DNA of 32,166 bases from Chitinophaga pinensis. GTDB taxonomy: Bacteria; Bacteroidota; Bacteroidia; UKL13-3. Below the pieces are notes generated by a model, which was given only the letters and a program-made list of their open reading frames with translations, was not told the origin of the DNA and searched no databases. Location of the stretch: contig CALPIR020000003.1 in assembly GCA_943323675.2 (NCBI GenBank), positions 1 through 32,166 of the forward strand. Reading direction: 5' to 3'. Both the position numbers and the translations under genes were made by a program. Positions 2,163 to 24,364 of this stretch are shown piece after piece (the first letter of the stretch is position 1; every line of letters begins with the position of its first letter).

Positions 2163-2417
2163 ATGAGTTTGCCGCTAACAGAAATAGAAATCTTCCTAGA
2201 CTTTACTGCATCTGAGTTGTCAATTTCCCAAAACAGCATTTCATTAGAAACACGCTTCCGAGATATTCCTACATGGAGTTCACTAAATGCTTTAATTTAT
2301 ATTTCTAGAATAAACGAAGAAACAAATGTGCTAATCACATCAGGTGATTTATCTGAAATTGATAACCTGGGAGAAATATACCAGTTGATTAAAGAAAGAA
2401 AGCATGGCCATAACTAA
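2163..2417 (+). CDS. Acyl carrier protein
   Basis: 84 aa and acidic. ETRFRDIPTWSSLNAL corresponds to the (W)DSL phosphopantetheinyl-Ser motif. Overlaps the KAS III gene. Confidence 0.85.
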   Translation: MSLPLTEIEIFLDFTASELSISQNSISLETRFRDIPTWSSLNALIYISRINEETNVLITSGDLSEIDNLGEIYQLIKERKHGHN

Positions 2418-4322: not shown

Positions 4323-4604
4323 CACGTTAAAATTTATACTAAATTAAACCAATACATTATTGTTAAATAAAACAATGAATAGCCCTTTACTTGTTAAATA
4401 AATTTATCCGACCACTTATGAAAGTTGAGCATAAGCATAATGGAAGTAAAAATATAATAACTAGGTAAAGGCTAAATAAACTGCATTTACACCATTATAC
4501 CATGGTGAAATATTCCAATATAATCAGGGTTTAGTTAAGAAATAAATTTACATTCGTGTTACTAAAATTAAATCAAAATATCATCTGTTTAGTCAATTAA
4601 GTAA

Positions 4605-5135
4605 TTGGAGGAATTAAAAAGTAACAGTATTACACTCACTAAACTTAACGAAGGCAATCTTGAATTACTTCGTAACTGGCGTAACACACCACAAATTTCA
4701 AAAAACATGGAGTTTAGTGGTTACATCACGAGTGAAAACCAGCATTTATGGTTTAGCAACCTTTGCACTAAAACAAATTATTACTTTATCATTAATTACC
4801 AGAATCGTAAAATTGGCTTAATTCACCTGAATAAATTTGACCATGACAGATCATCGGCACATGCTGGTTTATTCATAGCCGAAAATGAATTTACAGGGAC
4901 AGGTATCTCTTTAGGGGCATCATTGCTTTTACTGGCATATGCATTTGATGAATTAAAACTTAACAATGTTTACGCTAAAATTAAACTAGATAACCTATCT
5001 GCATTAAAGTATAACAGTGGGTTAGGGTTTGTTTTTGAAAAAAACCTGAACGAATCATTCAGCCTTTATAGGATTACAAAAAGTGATTTCCATGAAAAGA
5101 AATCATTGCTAATAAAGCTTTCGCAGGTTATATAA
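4605..5135 (+). CDS. GNAT N-acyltransferase, PseH-like (nucleotide amino-sugar N-acetyltransferase family)
   Basis: LELLRNWRN..ITSENQHLWF..KIGLIHL..AFDELKLNNVY..DNLSALKYNSGLGF. TTG start. TACATTCG near-consensus -7 box at 4549-4556. Confidence 0.8.
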   Translation: MEELKSNSITLTKLNEGNLELLRNWRNTPQISKNMEFSGYITSENQHLWFSNLCTKTNYYFIINYQNRKIGLIHLNKFDHDRSSAHAGLFIAENEFTGTGISLGASLLLLAYAFDELKLNNVYAKIKLDNLSALKYNSGLGFVFEKNLNESFSLYRITKSDFHEKKSLLIKLSQVI

Positions 5136-5143
5136 ATAGTGAA

Positions 5144-6049
5144 TTATTTCTGCAAAAACCGCCATCTCCATTCATTGATAAGGTATTTCAGTTTTTTACC
5201 AATACTTTTTGTCTCTAATTCAAGGTAGTTTCTTGTAAATAACCCAGGATTTAAAATCCACTTAATTGCTCTTTTATGAAGTGACAGTGAAGCGTATGGA
5301 AACTTGCTAAGGTTAAAATGAGGCTTTAAAATGGGTTGAATTTTAGTAAAGTAAGCAATTCGGTTGTGCCAATAAAAATCTTTATTGCGTTCAGGCATCA
5401 CATCAAGCCCAATATGAAAAGTTAGGTGCGCATCAGGTAAAAAAAGCGGCTTTGTAGCAAATGAAAATAAATTATGTACCAGCGCAACCTCAACGAAAGG
5501 AATACCTACACAAATATTATCCAAAATAAGACACCTGATTAACTCCTTCTTAATAACAAAACAATCAAAACCAGGGTGTGATTTACCTAAATCAGCAAAC
5601 ATCATTTCAAGACAAATTTCATCAGCATATTTTTTACTTATTCTTCTGCGGTTGATTACAATGGCATCGTATCCCTGAATTACATATTGATGAACTACAT
5701 TATAAAAATATGGCATTAAAGCAATATCAGCATTGGTATAAATATAATAATCAGAATCAGGCACCTCATTAAATTTATCAAAGATATCTGCTATTAAAGG
5801 GAGCTTTTTGCCACTTAATTTCGGATTCACATCAAGCACCGATCTGGTTAAGTTTGATAGAGATAAAAATCCTTCAGGGATGATTGTACTATCTTCCTCA
5901 AAATTTGTAGTACAAAGGTTTATTTGACATAAGTTTTCGGTATAACTTTTTGCCCTTATCATGGAAGCAAAAGTAATCGGCTGAGACTTGTATAAATCTG
6001 AGCTTTCCGTTACTTTTACAGGGTTAATAATATGAGTTAACTTAATCAA
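5144..6049 (-). CDS. Hypothetical protein, possibly GT-A-fold glycosyltransferase-like
   Basis: 301-aa ORF with TTG start and an in-frame stop 6 codons upstream. DYYIYTNADIAL resembles the strand plus DxD-type motif of GT-A enzymes; also HPGFDCFV. Confidence 0.6.
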   Translation of the reverse strand: MIKLTHIINPVKVTESSDLYKSQPITFASMIRAKSYTENLCQINLCTTNFEEDSTIIPEGFLSLSNLTRSVLDVNPKLSGKKLPLIADIFDKFNEVPDSDYYIYTNADIALMPYFYNVVHQYVIQGYDAIVINRRRISKKYADEICLEMMFADLGKSHPGFDCFVIKKELIRCLILDNICVGIPFVEVALVHNLFSFATKPLFLPDAHLTFHIGLDVMPERNKDFYWHNRIAYFTKIQPILKPHFNLSKFPYASLSLHKRAIKWILNPGLFTRNYLELETKSIGKKLKYLINEWRWRFLQK

Positions 6050-7182
6050 TGGGTAAAATTTTATTTAATGACGTTCGGAAGACTGACAATTATACAAAAA
6101 ACATTTCCATGTTGTTTTCCGATTATGAATTGTTTAGAAATAAACATTTCTCTGAATTATGTAAGTTACATTTAAATAAGCATTACAAAGAATCAAGTTT
6201 GTTCCTAACTCATTCAGCAACTGGAGCACTTGAAATGATTGCGCTCCTATTAGACATTAAGCCAGGTGATGAAATTATTATGCCCTCGTTTACCTATGTA
6301 TCAACGGCAAATGCATTTGTTTCTTTAGGTGCAACACCTGTTTTTGTTGACATCAACCAAGAAACGTTAAACATTGACGATACACTCATAGAGCTTGCTA
6401 TTACGCCAAAAACAAAAGCAGTTGTTGCTATGCATTACGCAGGTCTATCAAACAACCTAAACGTTATAAAATCAATTTGCATCAAAAATAACCTGTATTT
6501 AATTGAAGATGCTGCAATGGCTTATGGAAATAAAGATGATTTAAAACCATTGGGAACTATTGGCGATTTTGGTGTTATCAGCTTTGATATAACAAAGCAT
6601 ATTTCTGCCATTCAGGGAGGTTTACTTATTATAAACAATAAAACATTTGCCCATCGAGCTTCAAACATATACCACATAGGTACAAATCGGGAAGATTTCA
6701 ACTCAAAAAAAACGGCACATTATGAGTGGGTTGATTTGGGATTAAAATTTCAAATGAATGAGCTAAGTGCCGCTACTTTGTATGATGACCTACTGAATGA
6801 AGAAAAGATTATTAGTCATAGAAAAACACTATCAGAAATATATTATAATTTACTTAGTCATTTAGAAGAACAAGGCAAATTAAAGTTAATCAATAAACCT
6901 TTTTTAAAAGACAACATACATGAGTTTTTTCTCATATTAAATACAACAGAAGAAAGAGACGCGTTGGCACAATATTTATTACAATGCAACATCGAAGCCT
7001 ATTTCCATTATCTACCCCTTCACGGCTCACCAATGGGTAAAAAATATAAATTTGTAGGGAGCGGCTTATGCACCAAAGTTTCTGAGTGCTTAATTCGACT
7101 ACCTTTACACAATAACCTTACTTTATCCGATATTCATTCAGTTTGTAAATCAGTTGATCATTATTTCATCAACAATGCATGA
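6049..7182 (+). CDS. wecE: DegT/DnrJ/EryC1/StrS PLP aminotransferase, WecE/RffA-like (dTDP-4-amino-4,6-dideoxyhexose transaminase)
   Basis: THSATGALEMIALLLDIKPGDEIIMPSFTYVSTANAF, IEDAA, SFDITK (PLP Lys), GTNR, FHYLPLH, LIRLPL. These closely follow the WecE pattern. Confidence 0.85.
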   Translation: MGKILFNDVRKTDNYTKNISMLFSDYELFRNKHFSELCKLHLNKHYKESSLFLTHSATGALEMIALLLDIKPGDEIIMPSFTYVSTANAFVSLGATPVFVDINQETLNIDDTLIELAITPKTKAVVAMHYAGLSNNLNVIKSICIKNNLYLIEDAAMAYGNKDDLKPLGTIGDFGVISFDITKHISAIQGGLLIINNKTFAHRASNIYHIGTNREDFNSKKTAHYEWVDLGLKFQMNELSAATLYDDLLNEEKIISHRKTLSEIYYNLLSHLEEQGKLKLINKPFLKDNIHEFFLILNTTEERDALAQYLLQCNIEAYFHYLPLHGSPMGKKYKFVGSGLCTKVSECLIRLPLHNNLTLSDIHSVCKSVDHYFINNA

Positions 7183-7996
7183 TCAAAAACAAATTATAAC
7201 AAGTAAACCAGATAATTTTAACCATTATCTGAAAAAACTATGGCGCTACAAAGCCCTAATATGGGTTTTTGCCCAACGCGACATCAAAGTTAAATATGCG
7301 CAAACTGCACTAGGTGTAGCTTGGACCATTCTTCAACCACTTACCGCCTTAGTTATTTACACAGTATTTTTTGGTGTTATCATGAATTGGTCGGCAGGTA
7401 ATATTCCTTTTCCATTATATGTATTAAGCGGATTAATAGGGTGGAATTTTTTTTCTTATATTATATACTCAGGCTCTTCAAGTGTACAAGATGCTTCATT
7501 TACAATAAAAAAAATATATTTCCCTAAAAGCATTTTGCCCTTATCTAAAGTGGTTGTGGCTTTTGTAGAACTTATTTTTAGTTTATTTTTACTTATACCA
7601 CTGATGATATATTACGGCATTCCTTTGTCGTGGCATATTGTATTTTTACCATTTGTACTAATTTATAACACATGTTGTGGTCTTTTACTAGTGTTTTGGG
7701 TTGCATCCTTTGCATACAAGAAAAAGGATTTATTCCACTTACTTCCTTATATTGTTAATTTGGGAATGTGGCTCACACCTGTATTTTTTACAAGTAATTT
7801 TTTGCCAGAAAAGCTTCGGATTATTGCCATAATTAATCCGATGGCTAATGTCGTGGATCTTTGGAGATGGCTTCTATTTAACAATGTAGATTTCAATTTG
7901 ATTTGGGTATTAAATTTTATAGTTATACTTATTCTAAGTATTTTTGGTATGTATTACTATAATAAAAAAGAAGGCGAATTCGCAGATTTTGTATGA
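7175..7996 (+). CDS. wzm: Polysaccharide ABC transporter permease
   Basis: RDIKVKYAQTALGVAWTILQPL, IKKIYFP, WLTPVFF, INPM, about 6 TM helices. ATG at 7175, which overlaps the wecE stop, is preferred over TTG at 7154. Confidence 0.92.
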   Translation: MHDQKQIITSKPDNFNHYLKKLWRYKALIWVFAQRDIKVKYAQTALGVAWTILQPLTALVIYTVFFGVIMNWSAGNIPFPLYVLSGLIGWNFFSYIIYSGSSSVQDASFTIKKIYFPKSILPLSKVVVAFVELIFSLFLLIPLMIYYGIPLSWHIVFLPFVLIYNTCCGLLLVFWVASFAYKKKDLFHLLPYIVNLGMWLTPVFFTSNFLPEKLRIIAIINPMANVVDLWRWLLFNNVDFNLIWVLNFIVILILSIFGMYYYNKKEGEFADFV

Positions 7997-9108
7997 TGAA
8001 TGACACAGCAATTAAAATAGAAAATCTGTCCAAAAAGTACTTTTTAAATAATGGCAAAAATTTACTCATAAGTAATAAAGAGGAATTTTGGGCATTAAAT
8101 AATGTGTCATTTGAAGTAAAAAAAGGAGAAAAAATAGTAATAACTGGCCCTAATGGAAGTGGCAAAAGTACATTGTTAAAAATACTGGCAGGAATTATAA
8201 AACCATCCGAAGGAGAAGTGACAATATATGGACGAGTAGCAAGTATTTTAGATATTGGTGCTGGTTTTCATCCCGAACTAAGTGGAAGTGATAATATTTA
8301 TTTAAATGGTCAATTACTTGGGTTTTCTAAATATGAAATTAAACAGAAATATAACGACATAGTAGAATTCAGCGGAATTGAAAAATTTATTAATGAGCCA
8401 ATAAAGCACTATTCAAACGGAATGTATTTGCGTTTAGCTTTTAGCATAATAGCACATTTAGATTTTGATATATATCTTTTTGATGAAGTAATTAATGTAG
8501 GTGATGCTGAATTCAGAGAAAAGTCTAAAAAACTATTTGATAATGATAAATATAAAACGGTAATACTTGCCACACATGTATTAGATGAAATAAACACCCC
8601 TTCCAATAGAGTTGTCAAATTAGAAAATGGCCTTTTATCGGAAGAAAAGAGTTCAAACAATTTGGAAAAGGAAAGTGAAATTGATTTTTTGGAAGGAATT
8701 ATCAAATTTGAAAAAGGAATAATTGAAATTAAAAGGACTGACTTTGACGATAAGATAGAATTTATTATAACATCAACCTTAAACGAGCCACACTTAAAAG
8801 AAAAGCATTTAATTACTTGTTTAGTAGATATAAGAAGCAACTATTTGATGAGCCATTTAGGATTTAAACACATTAACGAGATTGAATACATTGATGAGTT
8901 TTCCTTTTCTCAAAAATTTATACTTAATAAGATATTGTTTAGAGGTGGTAACTATAGTTTATCTTTTATTTATACAAGAAGTGGTGACCCTAGCGATTAT
9001 TATAAGTTATCTAAAAAGTTTGATTTTTACTTTGATAATAAAATATTTGAGTTAAATTATTCAAATGAGAACGCATATGGATCTATAATTTATCCCAATA
9101 CCCTCTAA
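7993..9108 (+). CDS. wzt: Polysaccharide ABC transporter ATP-binding protein with C-terminal extension
   Basis: FWALNNVSFEV, Walker A GPNGSGKS, GFHPELSG, signature YSNGM, Walker B IYLFDE, H-loop ATH, and about 150 extra C-terminal residues. Confidence 0.92.
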   Translation: MMNDTAIKIENLSKKYFLNNGKNLLISNKEEFWALNNVSFEVKKGEKIVITGPNGSGKSTLLKILAGIIKPSEGEVTIYGRVASILDIGAGFHPELSGSDNIYLNGQLLGFSKYEIKQKYNDIVEFSGIEKFINEPIKHYSNGMYLRLAFSIIAHLDFDIYLFDEVINVGDAEFREKSKKLFDNDKYKTVILATHVLDEINTPSNRVVKLENGLLSEEKSSNNLEKESEIDFLEGIIKFEKGIIEIKRTDFDDKIEFIITSTLNEPHLKEKHLITCLVDIRSNYLMSHLGFKHINEIEYIDEFSFSQKFILNKILFRGGNYSLSFIYTRSGDPSDYYKLSKKFDFYFDNKIFELNYSNENAYGSIIYPNTL

Positions 9109-9258
9109 AATTCTCCCCTTAAGTGTAAATATCAAAAGTTTTCATTAAAGAAAAATTTATACCAATAACCATTTTGATATAGGTTGGGGGCCTTAAGTTA
9201 ATACAATCACCCTTTCATTATTTTTACATTTCTAACACCTAGCTTAAAGAATCATAAG

Positions 9259-9299
9259 ATTAAACAGACAATGTGAGATGCCTTTTTGTTCTGTTTAAT
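9259..9299. other. Intergenic hairpin (possible terminator or processing site)
   Basis: ATTAAACAGA-CAA ... TTG-T-TCTGTTTAAT: a 10-bp perfect outer stem between wzt and the dioxygenase run. No clear U-tract. Confidence 0.35.
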
Positions 9300-9507
9300 G
9301 GCTCTAAATAGGAAATTTGTGTTGGTTTTGATAATTGCATGAAAACTTGCTTAATTTTATCTAACTCTTTTTAACGCTCAACAAATTGAATAGAACAAAA
9401 CCATTTCTTTTTTAATTTTTACAATTTAAAGTTGATATTTTTGCCTACTTCAAAATTGTTCCTCGTAAGGAAAAACCTACAATAAGCCAATAGTATACAT
9501 TAAACTA

Positions 9508-9515
9508 TACCTTTG
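9508..9515 (+). promoter_or_regulatory. Candidate -7 element (TACCTTTG) for the dioxygenase operon
   Basis: Exact TAnnTTTG 17 nt before ATG 9533. A second match, TATTTTTG, lies at 9436-9443. Confidence 0.6.
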
Positions 9516-9532
9516 GATAAACATAATTTAAA

Positions 9533-10447
9533 ATGAACGTAGATAGGAAAATCTTTTTTAAAGATGTAGAAGTTGACAATGAATTTAATTCAAAGGGATT
9601 TGTTGTACATGGTAATATTTCTGATAAGACAATAAAAACTTTAACAGATGTATTCAAAGAACTTGAAATTCCAGATTCATATGGGTTTGGCTATAATGTG
9701 GGTTTGAATACAGAATTATTTGAAAAGAGGAAAGCTATGCAGGATAATATTAAAGAAATTATTTCAGCTGAAATATTACCTCTTTTAAATAATAAAGAAC
9801 TATTTACAGCTACATTCATGAATAAAGTAGCAAACAGTAAAATATTTTTACCAGCACACCAAGATTGGACCTATACAAATGAAGATGAATTTGATTCTGT
9901 TATGTGTTGGATCCCATTGGTAGATGTTACCATGAAAAATGGAGCAATGTGTTTTGTACCCTCTTCTAATAAATTATTTAATTACACACGTTCATTTCCG
10001 TTTCCTTTGGCACAAACGCCCGTTGATAAAAATTGTGGTAATTTGATAGGGTATATGAAAACGATAAATATGAAAGCTGGTGAAATGGTATTTATTAATC
10101 ATAAAACGGTACATGCGTCATTTCCTAATAGTACAGATACAGATCGACTAGCTGTTGGATTGAGCATTGCCCCCAAAAATGAAGATTTATTCGTGTATTG
10201 CTTAAACCCGGTTACTCAAGGAAAAACTAAACTGAAATATCTAGTAGATGAATATTTTTTAGTGAATTATCGACATTATTATATTGAAAATAAATTTAAT
10301 AATAGCATGCCTTATGACTTTAAATACCCAATAATAGAAGAAACGAAGCAAATATTACCAGATATTTCTTGGGAAGATTGTGTAGATTTCTTTGAAAATA
10401 GTGGTCTAAAGTTTAATCCGTTAATTGTTAGTCAAGGAAAAAATTAA
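9533..10447 (+). CDS. PhyH-family Fe(II)/2-oxoglutarate dioxygenase (copy 1)
   Basis: HxD motif in PAHQDWT, WIPLVD..NGAMCFVPSS, distal His in TVHASFPN, and the DRLAV Arg. Confidence 0.88.
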   Translation: MNVDRKIFFKDVEVDNEFNSKGFVVHGNISDKTIKTLTDVFKELEIPDSYGFGYNVGLNTELFEKRKAMQDNIKEIISAEILPLLNNKELFTATFMNKVANSKIFLPAHQDWTYTNEDEFDSVMCWIPLVDVTMKNGAMCFVPSSNKLFNYTRSFPFPLAQTPVDKNCGNLIGYMKTINMKAGEMVFINHKTVHASFPNSTDTDRLAVGLSIAPKNEDLFVYCLNPVTQGKTKLKYLVDEYFLVNYRHYYIENKFNNSMPYDFKYPIIEETKQILPDISWEDCVDFFENSGLKFNPLIVSQGKN

Positions 10448-10448
10448 T

Positions 10449-11522
10449 ATGAAAAGTGTTTTAATTGATACAAAAAAACAAGAAGAGTTTGAGTTGAATG
10501 GTTATGTTAAATTTCCACTATTAGACTCCGAAACAAATAATATTCTTTTACAATACTATGATGAGTTAAAGGATAAGATAAATATTCAAAATTCTATTTA
10601 TGGGATATATGTTAGTTTAGATGAAAAAGATAGGGAACTAAAGCTAACAATCATGGATTTTCTACAAAAATCCATTCAACCCAAACTTGATTCATTCCTA
10701 GTAAATTATAAAGTACATTTAGGAGGGTTTATCGTAAAAGAACCCGATAATTTTTCATACACATATCCCCACCAAGATTGGACATTTGTTGACCATGAAG
10801 ACAGAGAGAGTTTTTCGGCAACTGTATGGATAAGTTTAAACGATTTAACTCCCGAAATGGGCTCTTTAGGATTTATTAAAGGGAGCCAACATTTCCTAAA
10901 TGGCATAATTGGTTCACCATCCACACATTTCCGCAATTCAACACAAGGACACGAAGAATTATTATTTCAATACTTAGATTTCCCAAAAGTAAACTGTGGT
11001 GACGCTATAATGTTCAACAATAAGTGTGTTCATGGTGCAAATCCAAATCAAACTCCAAATTCTAGAGTAATTATTGGTATAGGTATTACTCCCAAAGAAT
11101 CAAGTTTATATCACTATTTTCTAAAACCAAATTCAACAGATAAGTTTTTAAAACTTAAGGTTAATGAAGACTTTTTTATGGACTACATGAATCAAGATTT
11201 AATAAATACTTACAATGATGGTCAAGTGCCAAACAATTGTATAGTAGAAGACGAAATAGATTTGGAAATAAATCAATATAGCAACGATGAAATGATTAAA
11301 ATGATATTGGAAAAAGGAAATATAAAAAATGATTTTTTTATAAAAAGACCAGAAAATAAAGCAATTAATGAAAATATAGTTGAATTTAAAAAAGTTATCG
11401 AAATCAAAAAAGTATCTACTTATTCCAAAATTGACATGAGCAAAATTATTAATTTCTTCAGAATATATACGCCTTACAATATATTTAAAGAGGCTAAATT
11501 TAGATTAACAGGAAAGTATTAA
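10449..11522 (+). CDS. PhyH-family Fe(II)/2-oxoglutarate dioxygenase (copy 2)
   Basis: YPHQDWTFVD, VWISLND..MGSLGFIKGS, CVHGANPN, SRVII. ATG at 10449, one base after the upstream stop, is preferred over TTG 10425. Confidence 0.88.
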   Translation: MKSVLIDTKKQEEFELNGYVKFPLLDSETNNILLQYYDELKDKINIQNSIYGIYVSLDEKDRELKLTIMDFLQKSIQPKLDSFLVNYKVHLGGFIVKEPDNFSYTYPHQDWTFVDHEDRESFSATVWISLNDLTPEMGSLGFIKGSQHFLNGIIGSPSTHFRNSTQGHEELLFQYLDFPKVNCGDAIMFNNKCVHGANPNQTPNSRVIIGIGITPKESSLYHYFLKPNSTDKFLKLKVNEDFFMDYMNQDLINTYNDGQVPNNCIVEDEIDLEINQYSNDEMIKMILEKGNIKNDFFIKRPENKAINENIVEFKKVIEIKKVSTYSKIDMSKIINFFRIYTPYNIFKEAKFRLTGKY

Positions 11523-11534
11523 ACACTTACAATT

Positions 11535-12386
11535 ATGACAACACAAATTTTAAAAGATAAAAAATTAGACGAGTTGATTTTAAGTAGAGGATATGTTGTT
11601 ATTCCTTTTTTAAATCCAGTTGAAGTAGAGGATATGTTGAGTTTTTATCATCAAAATCACACAGATGATATTCCTGGATTTTATGTAAGTATTTTTTCTT
11701 CTGATATTAGTTTACGAGAAAAAATATCCCAGAAAATACGATCAATTTACATTAATCACATAGAAAACAATTTTATAAATTACAGGCTTATTGGAGGTAA
11801 TTTTATTGTTAAAACGAATATAGAAAAGGAACGAATACATCCTCATCAGGATTGGACATTTATCGATGAAGAAAATTGTAGAGGATTTAATATATGGATT
11901 CCACTTGTAGATTTAAATGAAGAGAATGGTGCAATTAGAATTACTCCAGGAAGTCATTTATGGGTTAAAAATTATTGTGGTCCAAAAATTCAAGATTCTT
12001 TTCTCGACAAAAAAGAAGAAATTTGGCAGAACATGACAACATTATACCTTAAAGCGGGAGAAGCATTAATTTATGATGCACGTTTATTTCATGCCTCATT
12101 CCCCAATCAAACAGACCAGCCAAGAGTAGCTACAGTTTTCGGTGCAATACCAAATAATGCGAAAATGTATCATTATATTGGAGATGGTGAATTTGTTGAT
12201 GTTTATGATAGTAATGAAGCATTTTTTCTAAGCAATGACATTAACAATGGAGCAAGTGTATTAAACAAGGTAGAAAGGGTAAAAAACCATTCCATTAAAA
12301 ATAAAAATTTACCTGTATATTTAAATGATGTAGGCATTCAAATAGAAAATAAAAAATCATGGTATAGTCGTATTTTTAAAAAATAG
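11535..12386 (+). CDS. PhyH-family Fe(II)/2-oxoglutarate dioxygenase (copy 3)
   Basis: HPHQDWTFIDE, IWIPLVDLNEENGAIRITPGSH, LFHASFPN, PRVAT. Confidence 0.9.
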   Translation: MTTQILKDKKLDELILSRGYVVIPFLNPVEVEDMLSFYHQNHTDDIPGFYVSIFSSDISLREKISQKIRSIYINHIENNFINYRLIGGNFIVKTNIEKERIHPHQDWTFIDEENCRGFNIWIPLVDLNEENGAIRITPGSHLWVKNYCGPKIQDSFLDKKEEIWQNMTTLYLKAGEALIYDARLFHASFPNQTDQPRVATVFGAIPNNAKMYHYIGDGEFVDVYDSNEAFFLSNDINNGASVLNKVERVKNHSIKNKNLPVYLNDVGIQIENKKSWYSRIFKK

Positions 12387-12395
12387 TTTGTTAAT

Positions 12396-13232
12396 ATGAG
12401 TAAAGCTAAAGTTTTGTATAATAATAACTCTGAAAAAGTTCGCGCCTTTTACAATGATCATACGGAAAAATTTTTAGCTGTTTATGGTAATATAATTCAA
12501 GCATTTAGAACAGATAACGTATCAATTTATTTAGACTACACCATTAAATCTGCTCAATTTAAAAAAGGAGAACATTTACTAGATGCAGGTTGTGGCATTT
12601 GCGGACCAGCAGTCTATTTTGCGGAGAATGTTAGTGATATCAGAATTGATGCCTGTACAATCTCCGAAGTACAAGCTGAAAAAGCTAAATCACTCATTAA
12701 AAATTCAAACCAAATAGAAAGTGTGTTTATATTAAATGAAGACTACCATAAGATAGACAAAGTGTATAACTTAGAGAGTTATGATTGTGTATATTTTTTA
12801 GAATCATTTGGACATTCCAATCAAAAAAACATGCTTATTGATGCTTGCTGGAATGTTCTAAAACCTGGAGGTAGATTGTATATAAAAGATTTGTTTAAAA
12901 GGCTAAGTGACGATGAATGGGAACAACTTAGAATTGATCAAATCTGCGATCAAATAGATAACGCATACCAATATTATATACCAAACCTAAATGAAGTATT
13001 AGATAAAATACGGTCTAAAGGTTTTGTATTAAATTTCGTTAAAATACCTGAGGTTGATCTTTCTACTTTTGAACATTTAAAGATATCAAACGATTTTCAA
13101 AATTTATTTGATATTGGAAAAATAACATCTTGGGACGATTATATTTTTCCCATAGACTTTCTTGAAATATACGCGACAAAGCCTATTAAAGACAACATGA
13201 AAGATATGCACTTGTATTTTATGAATAAATAA
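12396..13232 (+). CDS. Class I SAM-dependent methyltransferase
   Basis: LLDAGCGICG, CTISEVQ, YDCVYFLESFGH, LKPGGRLYIKD. The N-terminal VRAFYN resembles sterol/tocopherol-type methyltransferases. Confidence 0.9.
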   Translation: MSKAKVLYNNNSEKVRAFYNDHTEKFLAVYGNIIQAFRTDNVSIYLDYTIKSAQFKKGEHLLDAGCGICGPAVYFAENVSDIRIDACTISEVQAEKAKSLIKNSNQIESVFILNEDYHKIDKVYNLESYDCVYFLESFGHSNQKNMLIDACWNVLKPGGRLYIKDLFKRLSDDEWEQLRIDQICDQIDNAYQYYIPNLNEVLDKIRSKGFVLNFVKIPEVDLSTFEHLKISNDFQNLFDIGKITSWDDYIFPIDFLEIYATKPIKDNMKDMHLYFMNK

Positions 13233-14404
13233 TGCAAAAAAGGATAGCTATATTAAAAAATACTATTAACCTAACAAGAGCAAAAGATTGGAGACTAAGC
13301 TTCATTCCTCTCATTTTTGGCAATTTGTACCTATGGTTAATATTATTCAAAATAAGTTTCGATTTCAAAATCCTATGGATACTATTTCTTTCGTTAACAA
13401 CTTCATTTGGCTTTGCAGCTTTGGGATATTTTATAAATGAATTTTTCGATAAAGAAGATGACTTTATTGCGGGAAAAATCAATAAGCTTCAAATTTTAGA
13501 TGCTTACAAACAAATTATTTTATTTGTTTGCATCTTGCTTTTTACTTTCATACCATGGGCCTTTCTTCCATTTAATAAAATCTCTATTGTCTTAATCACA
13601 ATTCAGGTTTTATTATTTATAATTTATGCTTCTTACCCATTTAGATTAAAAAAAAATAAATATTTATCCGGGATCATAGATTCGATGTATGCCTATACAA
13701 TACCGCTTTTACTATCCTATTATACATTTTATTTAGTTTCAAGAAGTGATTCCTTTAATCCTTTAATTTTATTTACATACAGTTTGTTATTATTGATTAC
13801 AGGGTATAGGAACATTACAATTCATTATATAAATGATATATTCAAGGATAAAAGAGTTGGATTAGTTACATTACCTAGACACATAGGTGTAAAAAAAACA
13901 GATTCATTGCTAAAGATTTGTTTGCTATTAGAAGCTATAATATTGTTTGTGTTTATAATGTTAATAGGACAAAATTATACTGGTTTTTACTTATTGCTTT
14001 TCCCATTTGCTTATAAGCTATACAAAGGATTTTCTCAGTATTTAATATTAAAAAATAAATATATTGTAACTAACTTTATACGTCATATTCCCGATGCATA
14101 TTTTCAGTATTATTTTCCAATTAGCATATTACTATTATTAATAATATCTAATATTAGATGGGCAATATTACTTCCTATCCATTTGATTTTATTTGTGCCT
14201 AATTTTCGTTTTCAACCATTAATAAGCCTTTGGCATAGAATTCATTTCAGGCTTTATTTTAATTATATTTATTATAGTTACATTCGTAAAACAATTAGTT
14301 GGATAATTAATTATAGTATTTTCTTTCTTTTTTTATTGTTTAAAGTTGATTTAAAAAAAAGGAATATTTCGGCAATAAATTATTTAAAGCAAAAAATCAA
14401 ATAG
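13232..14404 (+). CDS. UbiA-superfamily intramembrane prenyltransferase
   Basis: First Asp-rich motif INEFFDKEDDFIAGK, YASYPFRLK, second motif INDIFKDKRVGLVTLP, many TM helices. TAATG coupling to the methyltransferase. Confidence 0.85.
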   Translation: MQKRIAILKNTINLTRAKDWRLSFIPLIFGNLYLWLILFKISFDFKILWILFLSLTTSFGFAALGYFINEFFDKEDDFIAGKINKLQILDAYKQIILFVCILLFTFIPWAFLPFNKISIVLITIQVLLFIIYASYPFRLKKNKYLSGIIDSMYAYTIPLLLSYYTFYLVSRSDSFNPLILFTYSLLLLITGYRNITIHYINDIFKDKRVGLVTLPRHIGVKKTDSLLKICLLLEAIILFVFIMLIGQNYTGFYLLLFPFAYKLYKGFSQYLILKNKYIVTNFIRHIPDAYFQYYFPISILLLLIISNIRWAILLPIHLILFVPNFRFQPLISLWHRIHFRLYFNYIYYSYIRKTISWIINYSIFFLFLLFKVDLKKRNISAINYLKQKIK

Positions 14405-14430: not shown

Positions 14431-15420
14431 ATGATTTATTTGAAGCACTGTATGTCTATTCTTTTAATGTATTTCCTATTATTAGTTTCTTGTAACAACG
14501 ATAAAATTAATAATCAATACATTAAAAAGATTTTTATAGACAGTAGTAACTTAGAAAATGAAGCTACAAGAAATGAATTAAAAACTGTCTGTAGTACAGA
14601 TACGCTAAAATGCAATCAAAATCTAAGTTATGATCAAGCGCTAACTAAATTAAGAAATACATTTGTTCAAATTAATACCCTTAATGAAAACGAAAACACA
14701 AAGACATATTTGAAAGCACTGCTTTTAAGTGAATTTGTTTATGCCTCCTTTAGCTTTCAATTTTTGGGGTCAGATCTAGGTGAAACAAGCCACCAGGTTT
14801 CCATTGATAATTGGGATAAAATGAATTTAGAAAATTGTTACAATTTGGGTAATAATAATTTGGTGCCTGTTTGGTGTGGTGACAGAACTACCTTTTACAT
14901 TAGATTACTTGATCATTTATTGGGAATAAAGGCAGCTGCAATTTCAATTGAAAATATACATACATTTCCAATTGTTAATATTGGGAAGAGGCGTTTTATA
15001 TTTGACCCGTATGACCCATTTATTATTTTTGATTCTCTAACAATGACGGTGATGGATTATGATGAGGCTTTTAAATATTATTTAAATGATAGCCCACTAA
15101 AAATACTGAGAACAAAGAGGTCTTATGGTTTTCCAAACGAATTAATTTCAAATAAATTAACCAATAATATTTTAGGGTTCTCTAAACATGAAAAGCAAGA
15201 TATTTCACAAAAACTAAAATTTTACTTGATAAAAAACAAGGCCAATTTTTTAAGACGAGTTAATGCCTGTGTTTTCGAAACATACAGTAAAAGTGGCATA
15301 ATTTATCAAACAAATTTAAAAGAGGATAGGTATATCATTCACTTGGAAAATAACTTAAATAACATTCCAATGAATGTAAATCGTTTTAATAAATATTACT
15401 TCGGTAAAGATTGTAAATAG
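14431..15420 (+). CDS. Putative lipoprotein with transglutaminase-like (Cys-His-Asp) domain
   Basis: Lipobox LLVS-C21. VWC149GDRT, NIH177TFPIV and FIFD192PY show the order and spacing of a transglutaminase/papain-like triad. Confidence 0.65.
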   Translation: MIYLKHCMSILLMYFLLLVSCNNDKINNQYIKKIFIDSSNLENEATRNELKTVCSTDTLKCNQNLSYDQALTKLRNTFVQINTLNENENTKTYLKALLLSEFVYASFSFQFLGSDLGETSHQVSIDNWDKMNLENCYNLGNNNLVPVWCGDRTTFYIRLLDHLLGIKAAAISIENIHTFPIVNIGKRRFIFDPYDPFIIFDSLTMTVMDYDEAFKYYLNDSPLKILRTKRSYGFPNELISNKLTNNILGFSKHEKQDISQKLKFYLIKNKANFLRRVNACVFETYSKSGIIYQTNLKEDRYIIHLENNLNNIPMNVNRFNKYYFGKDCK

Positions 15421-17193
15421 ATGTGCGGGATACTAGGACAAATAAATAAAACGGATAAAATAGATGCTGACTTATTTAGTCAAATGTTACACACCATCCA
15501 CCATAGAGGCCCTGATGGTAATGGGATATATTTAGATAAACATAATCAATTGGCATTTGGACATAATCGACTTGCCTTTTTAGATTTATCTGATGCTGGC
15601 AAACAACCTCTGATTAGCAATAATGAACAAATTGTTGTAACATTTAATGGTGAAATTTATAACTATTTAGAATTAAAAAAACAGTTATTAGATTCTTATA
15701 CTTTTATAACAAATACTGACACTGAGGTTATTATTGCCGCCTACTTGAAGTGGGGAATAGATTTTGTAAAGGAGCTAAAAGGCATGTTTGCGATTGCCAT
15801 TTATGATAAAAAAATAAACAAAGTATTTTTAATTAGAGATCGATTTGGTATAAAACCATTGTATTATTTCTTTAATGAAAGCTGCTTGATATTTGCTTCT
15901 GAATTAAAGGCAATTTTATCTTCTGGCCTAGTAAAAAAGGAAATCGATTATAGCTCCTTTTCTGATTATTTTGTTTACCGTTATATACCATCTCCCAAAA
16001 CTATTTGGAAAAACATATACAAAATTCCACCTGCTAATTTATTGACTTTTGATGTTGACACTTTTTCCCATTCCTTATTTGAATATTGGAAATTAAATAG
16101 CAAAAATGAACAAGAAAAAAGTGATTTGTTAATTGATGAAATAAATGAAATCTTACAATTATCAGTTTCAGAACACACCAGAGCGGATGTTCCAATTGGA
16201 TCATTTTTAAGTGGTGGTTATGATAGTAGCGCCATAGTTCATTACATGAAAAGGTCTGGAATAAATCCAGAAACTTTTTCAATTGGATTTAAGAATTGGG
16301 AGAAAAGTGAGCATCAGTTTGCTGAGATAGTTGCTACGCATTTAAATGTTCCCAATAAATATGTTATTGCAGACGAAAGTAGTCTTGATTTGGTGAATAT
16401 AATGCCAATAGTTTATGATGAACCCATTGCAGACATTTCAATAGTGCCCACATACATGGTTAGCAAACTAGCCAAGCAAAACGTTAAAGCAGTATTAAGC
16501 GGTGAAGGAGCTGATGAAATATTTGGCGGCTACACCTGGCAACATCAGTATTGTGATGAGACATACTATAAAAATTGGTTGTGGAAAATAAAATCGATAT
16601 TTAAAAAACGAGAAACTGTTAATTATTATGCGCATGCCATGTCGATGGGATGGTTCGATAAAGATGAACTTGAGAATATGTTAACGCCTGCATTACATCA
16701 ATACATTCCAAGTGACGTACATTGGTTTTACAGAAAGCACTATAATAATAAGTTAACGCCTTTAAAATCGATTCAATATATGGACATGAAATGTTTTATG
16801 GGCGAATTGGTATTAACCAAAATTGATAGAGCAAGTATGGCAAATTCATTAGAAGTTCGCGTACCTTTTCTAGATCATAAGTTATTTGAAAAGGTATTTT
16901 TACTAGATGAAAAGCAATATTTCAATCAACATCAAACCAAATTTTTATTATATGAAAACATTAAAAAATTCTTACCACAATCTATATTAAATAGAAAAAA
17001 ACAAGGTTTTGTAGGTCCAGATAATTACTATATGAATATTGAATATTACAAAAAAGAATTAGCAAATAGTAATTTGGTTAAGCATAATATTATCAATCAG
17101 TCTTACTTAGATCATTTACTAAAACAAGATTACAATTGGAAACTATGGAAAATTTTGATTATGGAAAAATGGTTTAGTCATTGGGTTGATTAA
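15421..17193 (+). CDS. asnB: Asparagine synthase (glutamine-hydrolysing)-family amidotransferase
   Basis: N-terminal MCGI (Ntn Cys), HRGPD, NGEIYN, RDRFGIKPLYY, LSGGYDSS, LSGEGADE, EVRVPFLD. Confidence 0.93.
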   Translation: MCGILGQINKTDKIDADLFSQMLHTIHHRGPDGNGIYLDKHNQLAFGHNRLAFLDLSDAGKQPLISNNEQIVVTFNGEIYNYLELKKQLLDSYTFITNTDTEVIIAAYLKWGIDFVKELKGMFAIAIYDKKINKVFLIRDRFGIKPLYYFFNESCLIFASELKAILSSGLVKKEIDYSSFSDYFVYRYIPSPKTIWKNIYKIPPANLLTFDVDTFSHSLFEYWKLNSKNEQEKSDLLIDEINEILQLSVSEHTRADVPIGSFLSGGYDSSAIVHYMKRSGINPETFSIGFKNWEKSEHQFAEIVATHLNVPNKYVIADESSLDLVNIMPIVYDEPIADISIVPTYMVSKLAKQNVKAVLSGEGADEIFGGYTWQHQYCDETYYKNWLWKIKSIFKKRETVNYYAHAMSMGWFDKDELENMLTPALHQYIPSDVHWFYRKHYNNKLTPLKSIQYMDMKCFMGELVLTKIDRASMANSLEVRVPFLDHKLFEKVFLLDEKQYFNQHQTKFLLYENIKKFLPQSILNRKKQGFVGPDNYYMNIEYYKKELANSNLVKHNIINQSYLDHLLKQDYNWKLWKILIMEKWFSHWVD

Positions 17194-17230: not shown

Positions 17231-18166
17231 ATGTCGTTAATATTCATAACAGGTGGAGCTGGTTTTATAGGTTATCAATTGCAAAAGCAATTGGATGGTA
17301 AGTTTGATGTGAACGCAATTGATCTATTATCGCCAAACAATAAAGCAGGCACTTTTCGAAGTGCAAATTTAAAAAATATAGAACAAGGAGACATAGCGAA
17401 TACCTTTTTAGATAACCTAAATACTAAACCTGATGTTTTAATTCATTTGGCCGCAGAAACGGGAATATCTGGCTCGCTTATTAATCCAGCTAAATACTTT
17501 GAAACCAATTTACATGGAACGTTTAATGTATTGGAACAATGCAGAAAAAACGGAGTAAAACACCTCATTTATGCCAGTAGTTCATCAGTTTATAGTCCTA
17601 ATCAGCAATTAATGAGCGAAGAAAGCAATACACAATCACAACTATCGTTTTACGGAACTTCTAAAAAAATGAGTGAAGTAATGATTGAAAATTATTGTGC
17701 TCAATTTGGGTTAATAGCTATAGGTTTGAGGTTTTTTACAGTTTATGGTTCGTGGACAAGGCCAGATATGGCAGCCTATAAATTCATGAGTAATATTGAT
17801 AAAGGATTACCTATTAATATTTATAATAAAGGGAATGTTTATAGAGATTTCACTCATGTAAGTGATATTATAAAAGCCATAGAATTATTAATAAATAAAA
17901 TCCAATTTGAAAAGATTGGCACACATAAAATATTTAACATTGGCTTAGGCTCTCCAATTTCGGTTTTACAATATGCTAAACTAATTGCACAATCAATAGG
18001 AAAAGAGCCCAAGATCAATTTCACTAATTTGCCAGACAATGAATTAATATCAACATATAGCAATACCAATAAATTAGAAAAATATATTCAATTTAAGCCC
18101 GAATGCAAAATAGAAGATGGTATAAATGAAATGGTAGCTTGGTATAAAAACAATAGTTATGAGTAA
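17231..18166 (+). CDS. NAD-dependent nucleotide-sugar epimerase (UDP-glucuronate 4-epimerase-like)
   Basis: TGGAGFIG, HLAAETG, YASSSSVY, catalytic YGTSK, LRFFTVYGSWTRPDMA, RDFTHVSD. Confidence 0.88.
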   Translation: MSLIFITGGAGFIGYQLQKQLDGKFDVNAIDLLSPNNKAGTFRSANLKNIEQGDIANTFLDNLNTKPDVLIHLAAETGISGSLINPAKYFETNLHGTFNVLEQCRKNGVKHLIYASSSSVYSPNQQLMSEESNTQSQLSFYGTSKKMSEVMIENYCAQFGLIAIGLRFFTVYGSWTRPDMAAYKFMSNIDKGLPINIYNKGNVYRDFTHVSDIIKAIELLINKIQFEKIGTHKIFNIGLGSPISVLQYAKLIAQSIGKEPKINFTNLPDNELISTYSNTNKLEKYIQFKPECKIEDGINEMVAWYKNNSYE

Positions 18167-19337
18167 AAATATTTTTGTTTTTGTAGTTTGTGGATCATCA
18201 GAACATATAGACACGTTACATTTTTCATTATTGTATTTAAGACATTTTTCAAAAAATGAAATTATTGTAGTAACAGATTCATCCAGAAATGAAATTACTG
18301 TGAACCATGATAAAATTATTGATGTAAAAATTGATAAAAAATATAATCACCATCAAGCAAGTATTTATTTAAAAACAGGATTAAACAAATTTCTCCCCAA
18401 GGGCAATAATTATTGTTACTTAGACACTGATGTAATAGCTGTTTCTAATAGCTGCGACAACATTTTTAATGAATATGTATCCCCAATAACATTTGCCCCA
18501 GATCATTGTAAATTACGGAAATTTAGTGCATACGCAGTTAATTGCAACTGTTCTGAAGAATGGAAAAAAAACAGAACAATATACTATGATTATATGGAAA
18601 GCATAGAACTGAAAACTATTAAAGATCCATATCTAATTAAGAAAGCAACTGAATTACAGTTTTTATTTGATAATTTGAATAAAACAATTTTTAAGAAAAG
18701 TCTAACTGCAATAAAATTTGCATTGAGTTACCCCAAATTTGTTTTAAATCAGGAATTTCATTTCAATAGAAAAACAAGAACTTGGCATCTGAACACAGGA
18801 GAAATTGTAATGTATGAAGTCAATCTAAAAAAGAATCAAGAAAAGCCGAATGGAATTGTATTTAATAAATGGAATCAAAAATGGTACGATAGACATGGGA
18901 ATGACATATGGCAAGATGAGTGTGACCATTTATCAATACAAATAGCAGAAACTTTTAACCTGAAAATAAAAAATAAGAATTGGCAGCATTGGAATGGCGG
19001 AGTCTTTCTATTTAATGATCAAAGTGAGGATTTTTTAAATACTTGGCACCAAAAAACCATGTATATATTTACCCAGCCAAACTGGAAAACGCGTGACCAA
19101 GGCACTTTAATTGCAACTGCTTGGGAGTTTGGATTAAGCAACCATCCTACCCTATCTAAAAAGTGGAACTTTATAGCAGATTATTTCAACAATGGATTGA
19201 TGTTAAATAGCAATGAAGGAATACTGACTGATGATGGTTTTAACACATGCTATAAACCATCTTTTATGCATGTTTATCATAACTGGGGTAAACAAGATTG
19301 GGAGATTTGGCAATGGATCGAAAATAAAATTTCATGA
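18159..19337 (+). CDS. GT8-like glycosyltransferase with large internal segment
   Basis: CYLDTDVI (DxD), HWNGGVFLF, RDQGTL, KWNF and MHVY occur in GT8 motif order. Confidence 0.65.
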   Translation: MSKNIFVFVVCGSSEHIDTLHFSLLYLRHFSKNEIIVVTDSSRNEITVNHDKIIDVKIDKKYNHHQASIYLKTGLNKFLPKGNNYCYLDTDVIAVSNSCDNIFNEYVSPITFAPDHCKLRKFSAYAVNCNCSEEWKKNRTIYYDYMESIELKTIKDPYLIKKATELQFLFDNLNKTIFKKSLTAIKFALSYPKFVLNQEFHFNRKTRTWHLNTGEIVMYEVNLKKNQEKPNGIVFNKWNQKWYDRHGNDIWQDECDHLSIQIAETFNLKIKNKNWQHWNGGVFLFNDQSEDFLNTWHQKTMYIFTQPNWKTRDQGTLIATAWEFGLSNHPTLSKKWNFIADYFNNGLMLNSNEGILTDDGFNTCYKPSFMHVYHNWGKQDWEIWQWIENKIS

Positions 19338-22355: not shown

Positions 22356-22365
22356 TGTAATGTAT

Positions 22366-22515: not shown

Positions 22516-22521
22516 ATGCCA

Positions 22522-24321: not shown

Positions 24322-24327
24322 AAAATT

Positions 24328-24346
24328 CAAAAATAACTTACATTTG
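24328..24346. promoter_or_regulatory. Back-to-back Bacteroidota -7 elements (divergent promoter)
   Basis: Minus-strand TATTTTTG at 24335-24328 and plus-strand TACATTTG at 24339-24346, both exact TAnnTTTG. Confidence 0.65.
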
Positions 24347-24364
24347 TTATATAAAAAATTAAGC

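Follow-up and report, generated by a model that had tools for sequence, protein, structure and literature searches.

A conserved, uncharacterized PhyH-methyltransferase-UbiA gene unit in a glycan locus of uncultured freshwater Bacteroidota

The window analyzed here is an entire contig of 32,166 nt (CALPIR020000003.1, assembly GCA_943323675.2) from a metagenome-assembled genome (MAG) labeled Chitinophaga pinensis, which comprises 2.3 Mb and is 82% complete. At positions 9533 to 14404, it carries five densely packed open reading frames (ORFs) on the plus strand, which encode three putative Fe(II)/2-oxoglutarate (Fe/2OG) oxygenases of the PhyH family (PhyH1 to PhyH3), an S-adenosylmethionine (SAM) methyltransferase (MT), and a membrane protein of the UbiA superfamily (Table 1); the GC content over the locus is 26 to 31%. 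This five-gene set is a conserved, uncharacterized enzyme unit in uncultured freshwater Bacteroidota, and we lean, on balance, toward a function in which PhyH3, MT, UbiA, and neighboring gene products build a lipid-linked, oxidized, and methylated primer for a glycoconjugate. A preliminary description of the window, whose coordinates for the five ORFs proved correct, had reported three adjacent PhyH genes with an HQDWT..H..R motif and a C-terminal Y/ExF segment, followed by MT and UbiA genes in a glycan-export setting. These assignments were confirmed by Pfam scores above the respective cut-offs, by invariance of the motif residues, and by the neighboring genes, with wzm/wzt directly upstream and genes for an AsnB-type amidotransferase and a carbamoyltransferase downstream. 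The junction sizes given for PhyH1/PhyH2/PhyH3/MT/UbiA (1, 12, 9, and -1 nt) are right as well, provided that PhyH2 begins at the ATG at 10449; an alternative in-frame TTG at 10425 would overlap PhyH1. The stop codon of MT and the start codon of UbiA overlap by 1 base.

The TAnnTTTG box that had been noted upstream of PhyH1 is present (TACCTTTG), and a second match (TATTTTTG, 9436 to 9443) lies within the gap between wzt and PhyH1. With 53 occurrences in the window versus 63 +/- 7 in shuffled sequences, the motif is not enriched, and for this reason the box carries no weight alone; it is consistent with a promoter and is no evidence for one. In a near relative (locus L001), the gap is also 424 nt long and 91% identical, with the last approximately 55 nt before the PhyH1 ATG being identical, and it measures about 18 nt in L005. 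Scans of the gap found no ORF, no Rfam family, and no terminator. Over the whole window, the Rfam scan gave no match, the terminator scan found 0 sites, and a sigma-70 promoter scan stayed at chance level (45 sites versus 45.3 expected).

The occurrence of the cassette was analyzed in 33 related loci, which were obtained by two pattern scans covering one genome per species; the UbiA protein was the query of the first scan and an 18-row homologue alignment that of the second. The loci originate from MAGs labeled Bacteroidota, Bacteroidia, Chitinophagales, or Flavobacteriales, except for one labeled "bacterium" and one labeled Verrucomicrobia. MT is located directly 5' of UbiA on the same strand in 24 of the 33 loci, and 23 of these 24 junctions range from -14 to +31 nt; UbiA is without an upstream gene in reach in 2 loci. 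At least one PhyH gene is present in 20 loci. The gene directly 3' of UbiA encodes an AsnB-type amidotransferase in 16 loci, a GT8-like glycosyltransferase of the type encoded at 18159 to 19337 in 7, Wzt in 5, and a homologue of the predicted lipoprotein encoded at 14431 to 15420 in 2. Irrespective of position, the AsnB and GT8-like genes are each present in 21 of the 33 loci. The conserved unit reaches beyond position 14404, and the AsnB-type amidotransferase and the GT8-like glycosyltransferase belong to it. Of the co-occurring genes anticipated in the preliminary description, AsnB was thus recovered in most loci and a carbamoyltransferase in 14 of the 33, while wzm or wzt lies within 10 kb of UbiA in just 11. 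One or several glycan-type genes stand beside UbiA in 31 of the 33 loci, the exceptions being L007, which ends at UbiA, and L036. The cassette ends directly at wzt in L002, L004, and L012, and the gene order in L004 is wzm, eight PhyH ORFs, MT, UbiA, and wzt.

When 400 other genomes sampled from the phylum were searched with a profile of the UbiA family, only 3 contained a match at an E value of <=1e-30. These three more distant complete genomes (G283, G079, and G167) again place UbiA with PhyH and MT genes, so that the synteny expected from the preliminary description recurs in 33 Bacteroidota MAG loci and three distant complete genomes. Glycan-type genes accompany UbiA in G283 and G079 also; in the latter, UbiA lies amid genes for a carbamoyltransferase, a UDP-sugar dehydrogenase, GT4 and DXD-type glycosyltransferases, an SGNH protein, and PhyH proteins. 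In G167, the PhyH and UbiA genes form a bare pair, flanked by an amylase gene on one side and a gene for a secreted Kelch protein on the other, and within 37 kb nothing beyond this pair is common to the other loci, glycan genes included. Because the pair stands alone, the PhyH-UbiA link is independent of the glycan context. Against 1.84 billion cluster representatives, the UbiA profile had 2,245 matches at E <= 1e-3 and 424 at E <= 1e-30.

Distant loci swap or supplement their PhyH arrays with three to six paralogous radical SAM proteins with an N-terminal twitch domain (NF033640), and B12-radical SAM, WelO5-like, AspH-like, and WbuX enzymes occur there as well. The NF033640 proteins have about 500 residues and a twitch/SPASM-like domain, number 45 in 14 of the 33 loci (e.g., L021:12357-20676), and surround the UbiA core in loci poor in PhyH genes.

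The three PhyH proteins of the window were assigned with Pfam PF05721 (gathering cut-off of 22 bits) and share 25 to 26% pairwise identity. H109, Q110, D111, W112, and T113 (HQDWT), H194, and R205 are invariant in all three, as are Y222 and E240-x-F242 near the C terminus. The iron triad HxD...H and the 2OG-binding Arg (H109, D111, H194, and R205) are hence present, with the Asp carboxylate of the hydroxylase subtype in place of the Ala or Gly of the halogenase subtype. Among 61 PhyH copies from the window and 18 related loci, both His residues and the Arg are retained in all 61, and HxD is found in 56 and HxN in 5. A subclade with HxN comprises L004:1396-2403, L012:184-837, L028:2104-3039, L002:12294-13136, and L004:13977-14810; HQN also occurs in the lone PhyH partner of UbiA in G167 (L038:11053-11994), and HQG, a halogenase-like pattern, in the PhyH domain of a fused protein (P0264; see below).

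In a FastTree phylogeny of the 61 copies, from which L001, L003, and L007 were omitted as near-duplicates or fragments, PhyH3 belongs to a clade of 13 rows (support of 99) that unites MT-adjacent copies from near and far loci; members of this orthogroup are 35 to 62% identical to PhyH3. PhyH1 and PhyH2 share another clade of 10 rows (support of 97), and the only PhyH1 orthologue in the tree is that of L005, the near-identical L001 having been omitted. Judged from this phylogeny, the recurrent core includes PhyH3 only, and PhyH1 and PhyH2 are accessory. An origin of PhyH1 to PhyH3 by recent tandem duplication was ruled out by the low identity and the separate old clades. The number of PhyH copies per locus starts at 0 and reaches at least 14. 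The most extensive array was observed in G283 (L039:9095-19797 and L041:324-6687), where the order MT-UbiA-UbiA-MT is followed by seven PhyH genes on the plus strand and seven on the minus strand and then by genes for a B12-radical SAM protein, an N-terminal-twitch radical SAM protein, a polysaccharide deacetylase, and a GT11-like protein. Candidate PhyH-PhyH fusions of 609 to 648 residues are encoded at L004:2396-4342, which holds two tandem PhyH matches, L012:830-2767, L028:3023-4924, and L039:13881-15710; P0264 aligns with two regions each of the large PhyH ORFs of L004, L012, and L028.

The closest solved relative of PhyH3 is SnoN (E = 9.7e-11), followed by EvdO2 (7.7e-5) and KanJ (3.5e-3); the meroterpenoid oxygenases SptF (6e-4), TlxJ, and PrhA match as well, as does the C-terminal part of a methyltransferase-domain protein (6ec3). 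PhyH1 is closest to SnoN (1.5e-6), and PhyH2 is closest to PHYHD1 (5e-4) and SnoK (1.5e-3). The matches to solved sugar-tailoring oxygenases have low identity, extend over approximately 100 to 120 residues, and have E values from 1e-10 to 1e-3. The orthosomycin and anthracycline oxygenases (EvdO1/EvdO2/HygX/AviO1 and SnoN/SnoK) include the solved proteins closest to PhyH3 and PhyH1, and as far as the accessible part of the source extends, their clusters encode several paralogous oxygenases each and a methyltransferase paired or fused with a PhyH-type oxygenase (PMC13374393). In contrast to the present cassette, these enzymes act on secondary-metabolite oligosaccharides in actinomycetes, whereas here the PhyH part precedes the MT part in the fusions described below, and the unit is coupled to the UbiA membrane enzyme.

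Longer relatives of MT were searched for with an alignment of 18 orthologues as the query, which returned 37 proteins. According to BLAST, 33 of these consist of an N-terminal PhyH part followed by MT (PF05721 is listed by Pfam for 32); the best match of the PhyH part is mostly PhyH3, with 33 to 44% identity, and the MT part is 32 to 50% identical to MT of the window. One of the 37, P0265, is an MT-UbiA fusion with seven hydrophobic segments, all of them within the UbiA part. UbiA and PhyH domains are combined in P0264 (1,094 residues), which was retrieved in a search for longer UbiA relatives; its N-terminal 320 residues resemble the terpene-cyclase part of drimenol synthase, but only faintly (E = 0.028). 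Among the best 150 of the 2,245 UbiA family matches, 11 proteins exceed 600 residues. Specifically, eight are fusions of UbiA with a GT4 glycosyltransferase (solved relatives BshA [3.3e-11], TarM, PimB', WbnH, and PglA), one carries a GT32-like DXD domain of the Gly_transf_sug type, and two carry a nine-helix membrane domain. The Gly_transf_sug-type domain also forms the C-terminal half of versions of the GT8-like protein with 660 to 690 residues, and in L019 stand-alone homologues of the GT4 and membrane domains are encoded a few genes 3' of UbiA.

These fusions in gene order are the strongest evidence for one functional unit: the PhyH3-MT-UbiA unit is real, old, physically coupled in relatives, and tied to glycosyltransferases. 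The dedicated oxidize-methylate-prenylate module postulated in the preliminary description is supported by the PhyH-MT, MT-UbiA, and UbiA-PhyH fusions for the PhyH3 core only, and its chemistry is what we infer from the families involved. The five genes regarded there as the unit have to be redefined, with PhyH3-MT-UbiA kept, PhyH1 and PhyH2 set apart as accessories, and an extension past 14404. Fusion of UbiA to cytoplasmic GT4 and GT32-like enzymes favors a lipid-linked acceptor, i.e., a primer or anchor, over a donor.

It is conceivable that PhyH and MT instead modify sugar residues of the glycan, during or after its assembly, by epimerization, hydroxylation, O-methylation, or methylenedioxy/orthoester formation, with UbiA acting separately and the adjacency reflecting shared regulation in a hypervariable glycan locus. 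The wide range of PhyH copy numbers is what would be expected for surface-glycan diversification, and the PhyH arrays co-vary with the N-terminal-twitch radical SAM genes as well as with B12-radical SAM, WelO5-like, and AspH-like genes. The accessible part of the orthosomycin source describes oxygenases acting on oligosaccharides and a methylenedioxy bridge proposed to arise by methylation and subsequent oxidative cyclization (PMC13374393). The match of PhyH3 to 6ec3 also speaks for this reading. We nevertheless consider such a division of labor quite improbable: the MT-UbiA and UbiA-PhyH fusions bind these enzymes physically to UbiA, the lone pair in G167 has no glycan genes within 37 kb, and the PhyH3 orthogroup stays beside MT-UbiA even where the UbiA proteins are just 35 to 45% identical to that of the window.

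The sequence of MT also matches generic class I methyltransferase Pfam domains in addition to CMAS (PF02353), and its SAM-binding core D63-x-G65-x-G67 is invariant in 18 orthologues. No NCBIfam equivalog cut-off was reached, the top score being 38 bits against a cut-off of 400. Its solved relatives are 5GM1 (TleD; 2.3e-11), 3BUS (3.4e-10), and then MitM, of which the latter two are O- or N-methylating enzymes. TleD methylates a prenyl group according to the accessible part of the source (PMC9715568). An N-terminal hydrophobic helix is found in 12 of 24 MT orthologues. A structure prediction for the UbiA-MT complex gave a score of 0.47, whereas the best of three controls scored 0.00; contacts agree between the runs to 60% or more, and the pLDDT (predicted local distance difference test) of the partner is at least 79. 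Of 80 solved complexes, 58 attain the mark applied to such scores, as do 2 of 110 mismatched pairs; with scores of at most 0.60, it is attained by just 7 of the 80 solved complexes and by both mismatched pairs. The prediction thus weakly favors an association of the two proteins.

The UbiA-superfamily protein scored 37.2 bits with PF01040 in a genome-wide search. N69, E70, D73, and D77 (NExxDxxxD) as well as N201, D202, and D206 (NDxxxD) are invariant in 18 family members, the basic residues R138/K140 are family invariant, and so are W310, H317, and N360 within approximately 100 additional C-terminal residues. The AlphaFold2 model (pLDDT of 86) features about 11 to 12 helices. Its top matches in Foldseek were AfUbiA (4tq3; E = 1.6e-4), DGGGPS, ApUbiA, and UBIAD1, all with a probability of 1.00 and with E values from 1.6e-4 to 2.8e-2. 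The best NCBIfam scores were those of PRK13595 (30.8 bits), ChlG (27.9), DGGGPS (17.2), and MenA (16.0), none of the curated cut-offs (e.g., 296 for DGGGPS and 102 for MenA) being reached, and the UbiA, MqnP, and CyoE equivalog models gave no match. A grouping with housekeeping quinone enzymes, which according to the preliminary description would have refuted its proposal, was therefore not observed. The heme O synthase (CyoE) of the same genome is encoded on a separate contig (C177; 256 bits), and a separate DGGGPS-like gene is located on C81 (273 versus a cut-off of 288 for PRK12872.1-3). A language-model search with UbiA returned "UbiA family" only. Placed solely by hidden Markov model (HMM) scores and fold ranks, the protein is neither a housekeeping quinone or heme prenyltransferase nor a recognizable DPPR synthase, and its weak family similarities point to prenyl-diphosphate users. 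Its best fold similarities and its sole, weak HMM similarities are to prenyl-diphosphate enzymes (DGGGPS, AfUbiA/ApUbiA, chlorophyll synthase, and MenA/UBIAD1), with which it shares both Asp motifs; unlike these, it scores far under the cut-offs and stands in a context of glycan assembly and not of quinone, pigment, or ether lipid formation. A second, small UbiA-family gene (268 to 272 codons), absent from the genome of the window, adjoins wzt in related loci (L004:12283-13101 and L027:626-1432, and ORFs in L006 and L012); two that were scanned have Pfam scores of 45 to 48 bits, and a WelO5-type Fe/2OG gene follows in L004 and L012.

DPPR synthases (decaprenyl-phosphate phosphoribosyltransferases of the UbiA/Rv3806c type) form a lipid-linked intermediate via Asp-rich diphosphate-binding motifs and are, to our knowledge, the only UbiA enzymes in glycan loci. 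By analogy, the window UbiA might move an activated sugar phosphate (phosphoribosyl pyrophosphate [PRPP] or a relative) onto polyprenyl phosphate, while PhyH3, as a SnoN-like radical epimerase or oxidase, and MT would remodel the sugar; the product would be a primer or the donor for the GT-C glycosyltransferase of the window. The best solved PhyH relatives, SnoN, EvdO2, and KanJ, are indeed sugar acting, a GT-C gene (PMT_2 and TPR) is found in the window and 5 of the related loci, and the mycobacterial Rv3806c-type phosphoribosyltransferase 8j8j reaches TM-scores with the UbiA model (0.46/0.58) similar to those of other UbiA folds (0.45 to 0.50/0.58 to 0.67). No description of the PhyH-MT-UbiA gene set was found in the main texts of the open-access literature (without supplementary files), and the nearest published item, a Xanthomonas lipopolysaccharide (LPS) cassette with wzm/wzt, likewise places a UbiA-superfamily membrane enzyme inside a glycan locus; in the accessible part of the source, it comprises UbiA, FAD and SDR oxidoreductases, GtrA, and a PhyH-family gene (10.1101/2022.03.02.482478) and, as far as this part extends, looks like the known DPA-type route.

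We regard a DPPR-synthase-like role as unlikely. The DPPR-synthase models NF008977/NF008978 gave no match to the window UbiA at E <= 10, a limit to be read with the fact that HMMER filters discard most matches above approximately 0.1, and none at E <= 0.01 in 8 UbiA relatives or locus partners, whereas the heme O synthase of the same genome does match them (3.8e-4). The Foldseek E value is 0.18 for 8j8j versus 1.6e-4 for AfUbiA. Of the epimerase pair that accompanies DPPR synthases, DprE1 (FAD dependent) and DprE2 (SDR type), the window ORFs scanned include no DprE1-type gene; one NAD-dependent epimerase is present. Unlike in the DPPR systems, the partners are PhyH and a CMAS/TleD-like MT, fused in relatives, and the protein has the C-terminal extension described above. 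A dependence of the GT-C protein on UbiA for its donor was dismissed, since a membrane-anchored GT2 (3390 to 4322), with two C-terminal hydrophobic helices as in polyprenyl-phosphate glycosyltransferases, could alone supply it. The fusions, finally, join UbiA to cytoplasmic GT4 enzymes, which are users of lipid-linked acceptors.

For the lipid-linked primer that we prefer, the observed domain identities, intact motifs, adjacency, and fusions are the starting points from which we infer an order of steps, the substrates, the lipid nature of the product, and its export by Wzm/Wzt. The PhyH3-MT-UbiA unit would act on the cytoplasmic side of the inner membrane, where the soluble Fe/2OG oxygenase would hydroxylate or otherwise oxidize a small precursor, which the SAM methyltransferase would then methylate; in a variant, PhyH and MT would tailor the head group or the prenyl donor. 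UbiA would couple the precursor to an isoprenoid chain by means of its two Asp-rich diphosphate-binding motifs. The similarities of the protein favor the type of donor used by DGGGPS, ChlG, and MenA-type enzymes, a prenyl diphosphate, over PRPP-type chemistry. The GT8-like protein, other nucleotide-sugar glycosyltransferases, and the AsnB-type amidotransferase may extend and amidate the lipid-bound product, and Wzm/Wzt may export it. PhyH1 and PhyH2 would add further oxidations as a variable, strain-specific decoration; such accessory copies and arrays of up to 14 copies fit a strain-specific diversification of an exposed structure.

UbiA enzymes, hydroxylases, and a methyltransferase also occur together in quinone pathways (ubiquinone) and in fungal 3,5-dimethylorsellinic acid (DMOA) meroterpenoid clusters, where these three enzyme types act on one prenylated scaffold. 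The cassette might accordingly make a free small molecule outside the glycan, such as an oxidized, methylated meroterpenoid or a quinone-like cofactor. The matches of PhyH3 to SptF, TlxJ, and PrhA, the faint terpene-cyclase match of P0264, and the location of the G167 pair outside any glycan locus are in line with this idea, and a paper with a title and abstract on a meroterpenoid cluster contains the terms UbiA, phytanoyl-CoA dioxygenase, methyltransferase, and gene cluster at some place in its text (PMC5989830). A free product is nonetheless very improbable in view of the glycan-type genes beside UbiA in nearly all loci, the 9 cluster representatives that combine UbiA with a GT4 or GT32-like glycosyltransferase in one protein, and the loci in which the cassette ends at wzt or, as in L004, is directly preceded by wzm. 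Unlike in quinone and meroterpenoid systems, no polyketide or aromatic-acid synthase is conserved alongside the cassette in the related loci, UbiA fails the UbiA/MenA equivalog models, and the product seems to be glycosylated.

Several points weigh against the lipid-linked primer. All function assignments rest on superfamily-level similarity; the Pfam score of UbiA is marginal (36.0 versus 34.2 bits), and neither its single sequence nor the 18-row profile matched a solved structure in the PDB by sequence. The nearest solved PhyH relatives (SnoN, SnoK, EvdO2, and KanJ) modify sugar moieties and not lipids or small head groups. For MT, 3BUS is almost as close as TleD, and the alignments with both are confined to the Rossmann core; the weakness of the predicted UbiA-MT association counts here, too. 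The 33 PhyH-MT fusions are soluble proteins with no hydrophobic window, which makes a nucleotide sugar as easy a target as a lipid precursor. Moreover, 13 of the 33 loci have no PhyH gene within reach, and oxidation is consequently not obligatory for the MT-UbiA step. To these points is added the small number of loci with wzm or wzt nearby.

Lipid-linked glycan assembly usually starts with a PNPT-type enzyme or a phosphoglycosyl transferase (PGT) acting on undecaprenyl phosphate, and mycobacterial DPPR synthase is the one well-known exception of which we are aware. The genome's own four Bac_transf and two Glycos_transf_4 domains were used as tblastn queries (E <= 1e-4), and no such initiating enzyme was detected in the window or across the 626 kb of 38 related loci. 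In ABC-type O-antigen systems, the gene for the initiating transferase frequently lies outside the locus, and the same 82%-complete genome has six candidates at other sites; the lack of initiating enzymes in the loci is for these reasons weak evidence. As a tentative and rather doubtful extension of the lipid-linked primer, UbiA might replace the phosphoglycosyl transferase as the initiator of an ABC-exported glycoconjugate with a new class of lipid anchor, on which fused or neighboring glycosyltransferases would assemble the glycan, and arrays of up to 14 PhyH enzymes or, in other lineages, N-terminal-twitch radical SAM enzymes would diversify the product by C-H oxidation. If true, a second, unrelated UbiA branch, linked through gene fusions with oxygenase, methyltransferase, and glycosyltransferase domains, would represent a new route by which surface glycoconjugates are initiated or anchored, and a function would be assigned to a UbiA family met almost only in uncultured Bacteroidota. 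The tandem PhyH and radical SAM arrays represent an unexplored pool of C-H-functionalizing enzymes for glycan or lipid chemistry.

Table 1. Positions of the cassette genes and of other features in the window
Feature	Position	Strand	Evidence and remarks
Wzm, ABC-2 permease of glycan exporter	7154-7996	+	Pfam ABC2_membrane 38.5 bits (cut-off 26.9)
Wzt, ABC ATPase, 371 aa	7993-9108	+	Pfam ABC_tran 71.1 bits, residues 35-167
wzt-PhyH1 intergenic gap	9109-9532		424 nt
TAnnTTTG box	9508-9515	+	18 nt 5' of PhyH1 ATG; candidate promoter element only
PhyH1, putative accessory Fe/2OG oxygenase paralog	9533-10447	+	Pfam PhyH 70.4 bits
PhyH2, putative accessory Fe/2OG oxygenase paralog	10449-11522 (alternative TTG 10425)	+	Pfam PhyH 51.8 bits
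PhyH3, putative core Fe/2OG oxygenase travelling with MT-UbiA	11535-12386	+	Pfam PhyH 79.4 bits
MT, class I SAM methyltransferase (CMAS/TleD-like)	12396-13232	+	Pfam CMAS 48.9 bits (cut-off 27)
UbiA-superfamily membrane transferase, uncharacterized clade, 390 aa	13232-14404	+	Pfam UbiA 36.0 bits (cut-off 34.2)
Predicted lipoprotein, 329 aa	14431-15420	+	N-terminal hydrophobic stretch, then Cys
Glutamine-dependent AsnB-type amidotransferase	15421-17193	+	Asn_synthase 247.5 bits, GATase_7 144 bits; begins MCGILG
NAD-dependent sugar epimerase/dehydratase	17231-18166	+	Pfam Epimerase 160.6 bits
GT8/GT24-like GT-A glycosyltransferase	18159-19337	+	AlphaFold2 pLDDT 86.7; no Pfam match
GT-C glycosyltransferase	25268-27865		PMT_2 and TPR repeats

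Among the neighboring gene products, Wzt has a C-terminal extension of approximately 135 residues (residues ~235 to 371; 8700 to 9108) without a Pfam match. Its relatives in L002 and L004 align over the ATPase part only, indicating that the extension varies by locus, as expected for a domain reading the glycan terminus. The predicted lipoprotein matched no Pfam or NCBIfam family; homologues are encoded in L001, L002 (two copies), L004, and L005, either after UbiA or before AsnB. A language-model search linked it to transglutaminase-like proteins (0.92; 166 shared features), which is to be taken as a lead only. A lasso-peptide-like cluster composed of a transglutaminase-like protein and AsnB was considered and rejected, since the N-terminal Cys of AsnB is retained, its glutaminase domain is strong, and the lipoprotein-type N terminus of the other protein counts against it. 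Moenomycin biosynthesis involves a prenyl ether lipid primer, a uronic-acid sugar, AsnB-like carboxamidation, NodU-like carbamoylation, radical SAM C-methylation, and ABC export, the lipid-forming enzyme being a TIM-barrel prenyltransferase and not a UbiA protein. The conserved neighbors of the cassette include the same enzyme types, a parallel that is one of enzyme type only.

The GT8-like protein has Foldseek matches to the catalytic domain of UGGT (7zkc; 1.1e-5), glycogenin, LARGE1, and WbbM, and D89-x-D91 is invariant. In L012, L013, L034, and L035, the epimerase gene is placed between the AsnB and GT8-like genes. Four ORFs without a Pfam family are found among the genes downstream of the epimerase gene. 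The genes at 2163 to 7182, encoding an acyl carrier protein (ACP), KAS III, the GT2, a GNAT protein, and a DegT aminotransferase, together with the PMT_2/TPR GT-C gene look like a separate Arn-like route, in which an N-acylated amino sugar would be placed on polyprenyl phosphate and transferred in the periplasm. On the minus strand, genes for a carbamoyltransferase (NodU/SxtI-like) and a small SxtJ-like membrane protein are paired at 22014 to 24381. L013 repeats this block, with the carbamoyltransferase gene, the SxtJ-like gene, a counterpart of the GT-A-like ORF at 24344 to 25267, and the GT-C gene.

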